A DNA stretch of 64,000 nt from Plasmodiophora brassicae (lineage: Eukaryota): the NCBI GenBank assembly GCA_036867785.1, contig CP145419.1, forward strand, positions 372,001 to 436,000. Reading direction: 5' to 3'. The position numbers and the translations under genes were made by a program. This document shows, piece after piece, positions 58,692 to 60,263 of the stretch. Numbering within the stretch: the first letter of the stretch is position 1; each line of letters opens with the position of its first letter. The notes below the pieces were generated by a model. It was not told the origin of the DNA, made no database searches, and saw only the letters and a program-made list of their open reading frames with translations.

Positions 58692-60263
58692 ATGAGTGCC
58701 TACTGGCCTGTTGAGCCTCATGAGAACAAGAAAGTGGTTCCGATGGTCGTCATGATGTTTTTGATCGCGTTCTGCTACACGTTGCTGCGCGACCTTAAGG
58801 ATGTCCTCGTCCTTGATACAATGACCACGTCGGCGATGCCGTTCCTGAAACTCGGTCTCACGCTGCCGGCGTCGGTTATTATCATGTTAACGTACACGAA
58901 GATGACGACGAAGATGTCGTCATCGTCCATCTTCTACTCGTTCATGGCATTCTTTATCTCGTTCTTCCTGCTGTACGGCGCTGTTCTTTACCCGCTGCAA
59001 GAATGGATCGAACCTGGCGATGAATGGATCAGTCAGTTCGTTAAGCCGACGAAAGAAGACTATGAGAATGCGCACAAGTCTGGTAAACCTGTTCTGGGGA
59101 GGGACGACTGCACGTTTCCGCAAGGCCTTGCACCTGTGATGATGATCCTCGGGCGGTGGTCGACTGCATTACTCTACGTCATGTCGGAACTGTGGGGATC
59201 GGTTGTTCTGTCCCTGCTCTTCTGGGGATATGCCAACGAGATCTGCCGGACGGATGAGGCCAAGCGATTCTACTTCCTCTTCAACATTGGAGCCAACTTC
59301 TCGCTCATGTTCAGCGGCGCCATTCTCATCACGATAGGGGCCATCACGGGCGACAAGAAGTCAACCAAATCGTCGGGCGATGCCATGTACCCTCTGCTGG
59401 GGTTGGTCGTCGTGTTCGGATGCGTTATCGTCGCCATCTATCGATGGATGCAGAACAACGTGCTCACTGACCCGAGGCTATACGCTCCACTTGGAGCTGA
59501 AGCTGGAGCCAAGAAACGCGGCAAGGTGAAGCTCGGATTCACTGAGGGCTTGAAGGTCGTCTTCACATCATCGTACGTCGCGTACATTGGCATTATCGTC
59601 ATGATGTATGGGATGTGTGTCAACTTCGTCGAGATCTACTATAAGGACGCCTGGAGGCACTACTTCCCATCGGTCGGACAAAAGCTGATGTTCTCAGGGG
59701 CCTTCTCCATGGGCACCGGCGTCGTGGCATTGCTGCTGCTGATCTTTGTCGGTGGAAAGGCAATTCGAACTATCGGCTGGACGCGGACCGCCTTGATCTC
59801 ACCGATTTCCATCGTCACGGTCGGGGTCCCGTTCATGGCCCTGTTCATGTTCCAGAAGCGATTCAGTTTCATGGCCAGCGCTGTCCTGGTTGCACTCGGC
59901 TACATCGCTGTTGTCATTGCCAAGTCGTTCAAGTACTCGTTCTTTGACCCTACGAAGGAAATGGCTTTCATACCGCTCGGAGAGGATCGAGGTCGCGCCA
60001 AGGCAGCCGTCGACGTCGTCGGTGCCCGCCTGGGCAAATCTGGGGGCGGTTTGATTCAGATCGTCCTCCTAAACTGCTTTGGCACGAAAGACGTCTCTGG
60101 GATCGTCGAAGTTCTCGTCGTGCTGACCATGGTCATGGTCGCCATCTGGATCGTCGGTACAGTCTCGCTGGGCAAACAATATCGCGCCAAGGTCGGTGAG
60201 CACGAAGAGCGCCCGATAACCGTTGTCGTCGCCAAAGCCACGCCTGCACCTGAAACCTGTTGA
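58692..60263 (+). CDS. TLC/NTT-family ATP/ADP (nucleotide) transporter, Chlamydia/Rickettsia/plastid type; intronless; no transit peptide
   Basis: YWPVEPHENKKVVPMVVMMFLIAFCYTLLRDLKD, YVMSELWGSVVLSLLFWGYANEI...EAKRFY, KSFKYSFFDPTKEMAFIPL and KAAVDVVGARLGKSGG. About 12 hydrophobic segments. Confidence 0.95.
   Translation: MSAYWPVEPHENKKVVPMVVMMFLIAFCYTLLRDLKDVLVLDTMTTSAMPFLKLGLTLPASVIIMLTYTKMTTKMSSSSIFYSFMAFFISFFLLYGAVLYPLQEWIEPGDEWISQFVKPTKEDYENAHKSGKPVLGRDDCTFPQGLAPVMMILGRWSTALLYVMSELWGSVVLSLLFWGYANEICRTDEAKRFYFLFNIGANFSLMFSGAILITIGAITGDKKSTKSSGDAMYPLLGLVVVFGCVIVAIYRWMQNNVLTDPRLYAPLGAEAGAKKRGKVKLGFTEGLKVVFTSSYVAYIGIIVMMYGMCVNFVEIYYKDAWRHYFPSVGQKLMFSGAFSMGTGVVALLLLIFVGGKAIRTIGWTRTALISPISIVTVGVPFMALFMFQKRFSFMASAVLVALGYIAVVIAKSFKYSFFDPTKEMAFIPLGEDRGRAKAAVDVVGARLGKSGGGLIQIVLLNCFGTKDVSGIVEVLVVLTMVMVAIWIVGTVSLGKQYRAKVGEHEERPITVVVAKATPAPETC

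Follow-up and report, generated by a model that had tools for sequence, protein, structure and literature searches.

A 64,000-nucleotide stretch of the Plasmodiophora brassicae genome (contig CP145419.1, positions 372,001 to 436,000; hereafter the window, to which all coordinates refer) contains an open reading frame (ORF) resembling bacterial-type nucleotide transporters (NTTs). The locus raises the question of whether this intracellular parasite possesses a transporter by which nucleotides are drawn from its host, and from where such a gene was obtained. It was concluded that the ORF is an intact nuclear single-exon P. brassicae gene for a canonical NTT of the TLC family. Its product would rather probably act as a surface nucleotide importer or exchanger, and the import of host ATP at the parasite plasma membrane appeared to be its likeliest function. 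The gene was located as follows:

58692..60263, plus strand: coding sequence of the NTT/TLC nucleotide transporter, a single exon of 523 amino acids plus stop, one of two P. brassicae paralogs

The translation of the ORF was uninterrupted, with 0 internal stops. The protein matched the Pfam family PF03219 (TLC) with an E-value of 6.6e-128 and 428 bits against a cutoff of 21, and NCBIfam TIGR00769 ('AAA' superfamily) with 392.2 bits, only just over the cutoff of 387.2. The full-length profile matches over the curated cutoffs placed the protein in the NTT/TLC family, and a complete and intronless TLC/NTT, as described in the initial annotation made from the letters of the window, was thereby confirmed. 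TLC was the sole Pfam family found at E ≤ 0.001, and no Mito_carr repeats were detected in the protein at this threshold. An ADP/ATP carrier of the mitochondrial carrier family was thus rejected as an identity for the product, and the public name of the protein, 'ADP,ATP carrier protein', is to be understood as the TLC type.

A 523-amino-acid protein 100% identical to the window NTT was already on record from Plasmodiophora brassicae, encoded on 3 contigs, the longest being 1.27 Mb, which bore out the earlier guess of a plasmodiophorid source. The protein search also returned a second P. brassicae NTT with 71% identity, encoded on a 1.37-Mb contig, a homologue from Spongospora subterranea with 54% identity, and two further phytomyxid-like proteins with 47% identity. 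Chlamydiota proteins followed next after this phytomyxid-like set, at 36-40% identity. The presence of the Spongospora homologue and of the further relatives suggests that the gene predates the split between Plasmodiophora and Spongospora.

Further, the residues known to be critical for transport were located. According to Heinz et al. (2014, PMC4256464), K155, E245, E385 and K527 of Arabidopsis AtNTT1 are charged, strongly conserved and important for transport. Deniaud et al. (2012, PMC3306366) associate K155 with the binding of ADP, K527 with that of ATP, and E245 with translocation. The equivalents were mapped from the residue spacing in an alignment with PDB 9j3j, and the conservation of each was counted over 488 fetched TLC proteins:

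58848..58850, plus strand: codon of K53 (in MPFLK), equivalent of AtNTT1 K155, which is linked there to ADP binding; conserved in 470 of 488
59187..59189, plus strand: codon of E166 (in SELWG), equivalent of AtNTT1 E245, which is linked there to translocation; conserved in 479 of 488
59631..59633, plus strand: codon of E314 (in NFVE), equivalent of AtNTT1 E385; conserved in 466 of 488
60036..60038, plus strand: codon of K449 (in RLGKSGG), equivalent of AtNTT1 K527, which is linked there to ATP binding and Pi co-transport; conserved in 477 of 488

The residues E166, E314 and K449 aligned to the 9j3j chain positions 161, 301 and 443. Because the spacings between these positions, 140 and 142, equal those of E245, E385 and K527, K155 falls on K53. 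All four charged residues of AtNTT1 were hence found in the window NTT, as K53, E166, E314 and K449. The initial annotation had listed the charged residues of LRDLKD, SELWG, NFVE and RLGKSGG as those that matter for transport. All four motifs were indeed present, and the lysine of LRDLKD (K36) was conserved in 471 of the 488 proteins, but the lysine examined in AtNTT1 corresponds to K53 of MPFLK and not to K36.

The fold of the protein was predicted with AlphaFold2 on an alignment of 47 sequences. The model had a mean predicted local distance difference test score (pLDDT) of 90.8 and a predicted template modelling score (pTM) of 0.90, and comprised two groups of six long helices each, 12 in all, parted by a lysine-rich central loop at residues 257-282. 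The five best PDB fold matches of the model were all NTT1 structures (TM-score on target 0.71-0.88), and the transporters of the major facilitator superfamily (MFS) came next with far weaker scores. The predicted model thus shows the MFS-like fold of 6+6 helices. By sequence, the protein matched PDB 9j3n with an E-value of 6.9e-102 over residues 3-506.

The 2025 structures of Chlamydia pneumoniae NTT1 (CpNTT1; PDB 9j3n and 9j3o) and Arabidopsis AtNTT1 (9j3j, 9j3l and 9j3m) resemble the window NTT over the full length (sequence E-values of 6.9e-102 and 1.5e-77, respectively) and in the conserved K/E/E/K residues. They differ from it by an identity of only 33-37% and by belonging to different clades. 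Additionally, the window NTT has approximately 25-40 extra residues in the loop between helices 3 and 4 and about 7 residues fewer in a C-terminal inter-helix loop (at ~390-395), lacks a transit peptide, and does not group with the plastid NTTs of the AtNTT1 type, such a grouping having been rejected. The lengthened loop was delimited as follows:

58989..59120, plus strand: lengthened phytomyxid-specific loop between helices 3 and 4, residues ~100-143, predicted to face outward

The loop was long in all five phytomyxid-like sequences, though shorter in one of them (P0006), and the extension was missing in the alignments from the two Chlamydiae, Rozella, plastid and other sequences. In the model, short helices were formed within it at residues 103-106, 110-113 and 121-130, and the pLDDT of the block was 88-95. 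An outward orientation of the loop is predicted from the 12-helix topology with the N-terminus inside.

The origin of the gene was approached by similarity searches and phylogeny. Against 1.84 billion cluster representatives, the best match of the window NTT after one phytomyxid-like protein was P0122, with 334 bits, above every bacterial representative. A cluster look-up identified P0122 as the 'ADP/ATP carrier protein' of Rozella allomycis, and the best non-self match of this Rozella NTT was in turn the P. brassicae window protein. The main tree was inferred with IQ-TREE by maximum likelihood from 65 sequences and 516 columns, using the LG+C20+F+G4 model by posterior mean site frequencies (PMSF). 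Supports are given as ultrafast bootstrap/Shimodaira-Hasegawa-like approximate likelihood-ratio test (UFBoot/SH-aLRT), and the tree was left unrooted. The five phytomyxid-like sequences, the Rozella NTT and four metagenomic proteins formed a clade supported at 100/100. The same clade of 10 sequences was recovered with a support of 100 in a FastTree of 163 sequences, which held a fragment of one clade member where the 65-sequence tree had a fifth relative instead. Within the clade, the five phytomyxid-like sequences grouped at 100/99 and the Rozella-side group at 98/93. The two P. brassicae paralogs paired at 96/88, thus indicating a lineage-specific duplication.

The primary-plastid sequences (with Camellia, Adiantum and Gloeochaete labels) and the secondary-plastid sequences (Ascophyllum and an MMETSP transcript) were found elsewhere in the tree. 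When the five phytomyxid-like and eight primary-plastid sequences were forced together, a grouping chosen after inspection of the tree, the approximately unbiased (AU) test rejected it with a log-likelihood difference (delta lnL) of 113.8 and a p-AU of 1.5e-6. A grouping with plastid NTTs, which had been named at the outset as the outcome to be checked by phylogeny, was therefore not observed.

The Rozella NTT and the window NTT were reciprocal best named matches within a common 100/100 clade, and in both of them a motif of the NFVEIYYK type takes the place of the N[LM]VEVxWK seen in Chlamydiae and plastids. Rozella, like P. brassicae, is an intracellular endoparasite, yet it belongs to an unrelated supergroup. 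The identity between the two proteins is only ~40-44%. The Rozella NTT is extended by a long stretch at its N-terminus and carries a large insertion in its C-terminal half, and the loop that the phytomyxid proteins have between helices 3 and 4 is missing from it. The affiliation with a lineage of endoparasite NTTs was thus established through Rozella at 100/100, the named microsporidians being outside our own trees.

The four metagenomic members of the clade (P0271/P0146, P0173, P0201 and P0378) are environmental proteins. P0173 is a C-terminal half of 265 amino acids called on a 20.8-kb contig, as would be expected if a eukaryotic gene were split by introns. With P0173 as the query, a scan of metagenomes gave 80 loci, of which the best had only 40% identity. 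A very long branch beside Rozella, with a stem length of 2.16, carries P0201 and P0378. When the genomes of bacterial and archaeal species were scanned with the clade alignment, no clade member was found among the 80 loci returned, which were mostly from Chlamydiota at 32-45% identity.

The presence and the placement of these genes had been described before. Major et al. (2017, Genome Biol Evol 9:480, PMC5381601) reported two P. brassicae NTTs, placed with or within the Microsporidia/Rozella clade at bootstraps of 92 and 100 with the microsporidians included, and explained the placement by the same bacterial source or by a eukaryote-to-eukaryote transfer; only 2 rhizarian sequences are listed in their table. 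The window gene is one of these two, without any difference of substance. Its presence, copy number and phylogenetic placement are therefore not new. Our tree, through the 100/100 clade with the Rozella NTT, and the published one both speak against the independent horizontal acquisition that the initial annotation had put forward. The shared clade implies a common origin, either from the same donor or by a transfer between eukaryotes. By the sequence comparisons, the window NTT is a member of the same bacterial-derived lineage as the Rozella NTT and, by the published trees, the microsporidian NTTs. What is added here beyond 2017 comprises the Spongospora homologue, the two phytomyxid-like relatives, the structural model, the corrected residue mapping and a check of the start codon.

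The start codon determines whether the protein could carry a targeting peptide. The region upstream of it, which lies between the NTT gene and a divergent XPG-family nuclease gene, was therefore examined:

58386..58691, no strand: divergent intergenic and 5' region common to the NTT and XPG genes, 306 bp, GC 0.484

Only four residues precede the conserved WPVE..ENKK segment in the window NTT, which leaves no room for a targeting peptide. The frame is open, however, for 198 bp upstream of 58692, to 58494, and contains in-frame ATGs at 58509 and 58560, which would add 61 and 44 arginine-rich residues, respectively. Hence, the absence of an N-terminal extension is not automatic. The GC content at third codon positions (GC3) of the in-frame stretch 58494-58691 was 0.50 compared with 0.72 in the ORF, showing no codon bias upstream. 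The ATG at 58692 stands in a gccATGa context, the alignment shows both the paralog and the Spongospora protein beginning at that conserved segment as well, and the public model of the identical protein also has 523 amino acids. The upstream ATGs at 58509 and 58560 are thus probably non-coding as judged from the sequence. An N-terminal transit or signal extension of the plastid type was not found in the window NTT, whereas the plastid sequences carry long ones. The initial claim of a start directly at the conserved segment, with no transit peptide, was upheld by the four residues and by the homologues, but it could not be taken for granted in view of the upstream in-frame ATGs.

The plasmodium of P. 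brassicae sits in the host cytoplasm. It was proposed that the NTT, being without a presequence, would enter the secretory pathway by means of its first transmembrane helix and would reach the plasma membrane of the intracellular plasmodium; both the insertion through the first helix and the travel to the plasma membrane would be expected because there is no presequence. At the surface, the transporter would act by alternating access, with host ATP being exchanged for parasite ADP (together with Pi) or with purine nucleotides being imported. Such import would supplement the parasite's own supply of energy and nucleotides during biotrophic growth.

The proposal follows the example of the microsporidian NTTs (T. 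hominis ThNTT1-4 and E. cuniculi NTT1-4; PMC4256464), which belong to the same sub-lineage as the window NTT by the published tree. According to that source, T. hominis NTT1-4 all reside in the plasma membrane of the parasite, and their transport is confined to purine nucleotides. Both the microsporidian and the P. brassicae NTTs underwent lineage-specific duplication, and a plasma-membrane role has been proposed for both. The microsporidian proteins have been assayed, with purine nucleotides only as the substrates, and localised, whereas the window NTT is known here from its sequence and model. Moreover, oxidative phosphorylation and the synthesis of nucleotides are missing in Microsporidia, whereas glycolysis and the tricarboxylic acid (TCA) cycle are reportedly retained in P. 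brassicae.

Before the alternatives were weighed, the genomic surroundings of the gene were considered. It is flanked by the following genes:

55302..58385, minus strand: XPG-family nuclease gene, the divergent flank, a single ORF of 1027 amino acids; XPG_N E 2.1e-27, XPG_I E 6.6e-27
61616..63999, plus strand: dynein heavy chain gene, the downstream flank, at least 2 exons, running off the window; DHC_N1

The positions 3-107 of the DHC_N1 profile were matched in 61616..62026 and the positions 204-562 in 62449..>63999. Because the domain is split across the two stretches, the dynein gene has at least one spliceosomal intron. The NTT gene is separated from the XPG gene by 306 bp and from the dynein exon by ~1.3 kb, all in one continuous stretch. 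The GC content of the window was 0.51-0.64 without a break at the NTT gene, and the GC3 of the NTT ORF was 0.718 compared with 0.69 for the dynein exon. The position of the NTT between two eukaryotic genes, as noted initially, was thus verified, an XPG_N/XPG_I gene being on one side and an intron-split dynein heavy chain gene on the other.

Several points weigh against a surface importer of host ATP. According to Heinz et al. (PMC4256464), substrates are not predictable from the NTT sequence. A complete glycolysis and TCA cycle have been reported for P. brassicae (PMC4815078), so ATP import would not be obligatory and would be a supplement rather than a replacement. Organellar and endoplasmic reticulum (ER) NTTs have published precedents, one E. 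cuniculi NTT being reported in mitosomes and the diatom PtNTT5 at the ER and the outermost membrane. One public source labels the identical protein (P0002) as 'unnamed protein product (mitochondrion)'. Named microsporidian NTTs were not among the matches of the searches with the window protein, the Rozella NTT and P0201, and our own trees cover the Rozella link only. The four metagenomic members of the clade could be bacterial or eukaryotic. A search of full-text literature by Plasmodiophora and phytomyxid names combined with NTT and nucleotide-transport terms, covering the main text of the articles, gave no transport, localisation or expression data. NTTs were likewise unmentioned in the searched portions of the two genome papers, the 2022 pathogen profile and the 2023 phytomyxid nutrition paper.

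Some of these points would suit a functional NTT on an internal membrane, such as that of the mitochondrion, the ER or another endomembrane, where its role would be to pass ATP or nucleotides from one compartment of the parasite to another rather than across the interface with the host. The published precedents of the reportedly mitosomal NTT of E. cuniculi and of PtNTT5 favour this explanation together with the '(mitochondrion)' label, and of the two paralogs one could serve at the surface and the other internally. It was nevertheless considered rather unlikely. With four residues before the conserved segment and an upstream stretch without codon bias, there is no presequence. The label was read as a record-level artefact, because the protein is encoded on a 1.27-Mb contig with the nuclear XPG, MCM and dynein genes. 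Further, T. hominis NTT1-4, which of the relatives cited are the nearest to have been characterised, are without exception at the plasma membrane, and ordinary mitochondrial carriers are expected in P. brassicae on general grounds. A surface NTT might also have another specificity and serve for the net import of GTP, pyrimidine nucleotides or nicotinamide adenine dinucleotide (NAD), which would amount to nucleotide rather than energy parasitism. The substrate range of NTTs is broad and unpredictable from sequence, and some carry NAD or all four nucleoside triphosphates; the reported retention of glycolysis and the TCA cycle weakens the case for energy import, and the paralogs, only 71% identical, have room for divergent specificities. 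This explanation was judged unlikely, given that the residues matching K155 and K527, which in AtNTT1 have been tied to the binding of ADP and ATP, respectively, are preserved and that ATP is carried by most characterised NTTs.

The remaining two explanations concern the origin of the gene, and both were rejected on the flanks, the composition, the paralogs and the AU test, their combined probability being very small. A plastid-type NTT, being either a relic of a photosynthetic ancestor or the result of an algal transfer and having an unrecognised upstream targeting exon, could be imagined from the in-frame ATGs at 58509 and 58560 with their 61 or 44 arginine-rich residues. It is highly improbable, however, in view of the AU test (delta lnL 113.8, p 1.5e-6, for a grouping named post hoc), the location of the secondary-plastid sequences elsewhere in the tree, the upstream GC3 of 0.50 against 0.72 in the ORF, and the start of both the paralog and the Spongospora homologue at the conserved segment. 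Bacterial contamination or an assembly chimera could be suspected from the nearest named non-eukaryotic relatives, all of which are Chlamydiota with 36-40% identity. Against it stand the distances of 306 bp from XPG and ~1.3 kb from the dynein exon with no GC break, a GC3 resembling that of the neighbouring dynein exon, an identical protein on 3 contigs from several sources, the second P. brassicae paralog and the Spongospora homologue. Additionally, no bacterial genome or representative came closer than ~40-45% identity, and this origin is hardly conceivable. Hence, a nuclear gene for a surface nucleotide importer or exchanger was retained as the preferred explanation.

A wider proposal, which is possible but doubtful, extends this explanation to the phytomyxids, including at least Plasmodiophora and Spongospora. 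These would draw ATP or purine nucleotides from the living plant cytoplasm by plasma-membrane NTTs despite having working mitochondria. The gene would have passed between eukaryotic endoparasites (rozellid-like and phytomyxid) and not come from a bacterium, and the outward loop between helices 3 and 4 would be an adaptation to the host interface. If such a transfer between phytomyxids and rozellids took place, nucleotide theft would be a means on which unrelated intracellular parasites among the eukaryotes have converged and which they share by lateral transfer, and a parasite-specific target would be available in a major crop disease.

P. brassicae causes clubroot, a major brassica disease, and is unculturable. 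If confirmed, a transporter at its surface that takes up host ATP or nucleotides would account for part of its biotrophy. To our knowledge, plant NTTs are found in plastids only and come from a different clade, so a surface NTT would be a parasite-specific target. The occurrence of a bacterial-type transporter common to unrelated eukaryotic endoparasites, Rhizaria on the one hand and Rozella/Microsporidia on the other, also bears on how intracellular lifestyles were assembled by lateral transfer.

Some minor observations were made elsewhere in the window. The spacer between XPG_N and XPG_I of the flanking nuclease gene contains, at 57216-57500 (minus strand), two W-x-C-x2-C ... C-x2-C motifs lying close together. 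These paired CxxC motifs presumably resemble zinc fingers of the RanBP2 type; a Pfam scan of the spacer at E ≤ 1 gave insignificant matches only. Three ORFs just upstream of XPG, at 48875-51316 (minus strand), 51567-53411 (minus strand) and 53688-55244 (plus strand), with 813, 614 and 518 amino acids, respectively, matched no Pfam family at E ≤ 0.001. An ORF of 1503 amino acids at 20781-25292 (minus strand) is located where the GC content of the window is highest (0.63-0.64). It had sub-threshold or marginal Pfam matches only (Bap31 coiled-coil, PHP and DUF6335), with no significant individual stretch, and could be either a gene specific to the lineage or a frame kept open by the high GC content. 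Finally, an MCM family helicase gene with the MCM_N, MCM_OB, MCM and MCM_lid domains was found at 38306..40693 on the plus strand, and its single exon is a further sign of a compact, intron-poor nuclear region.

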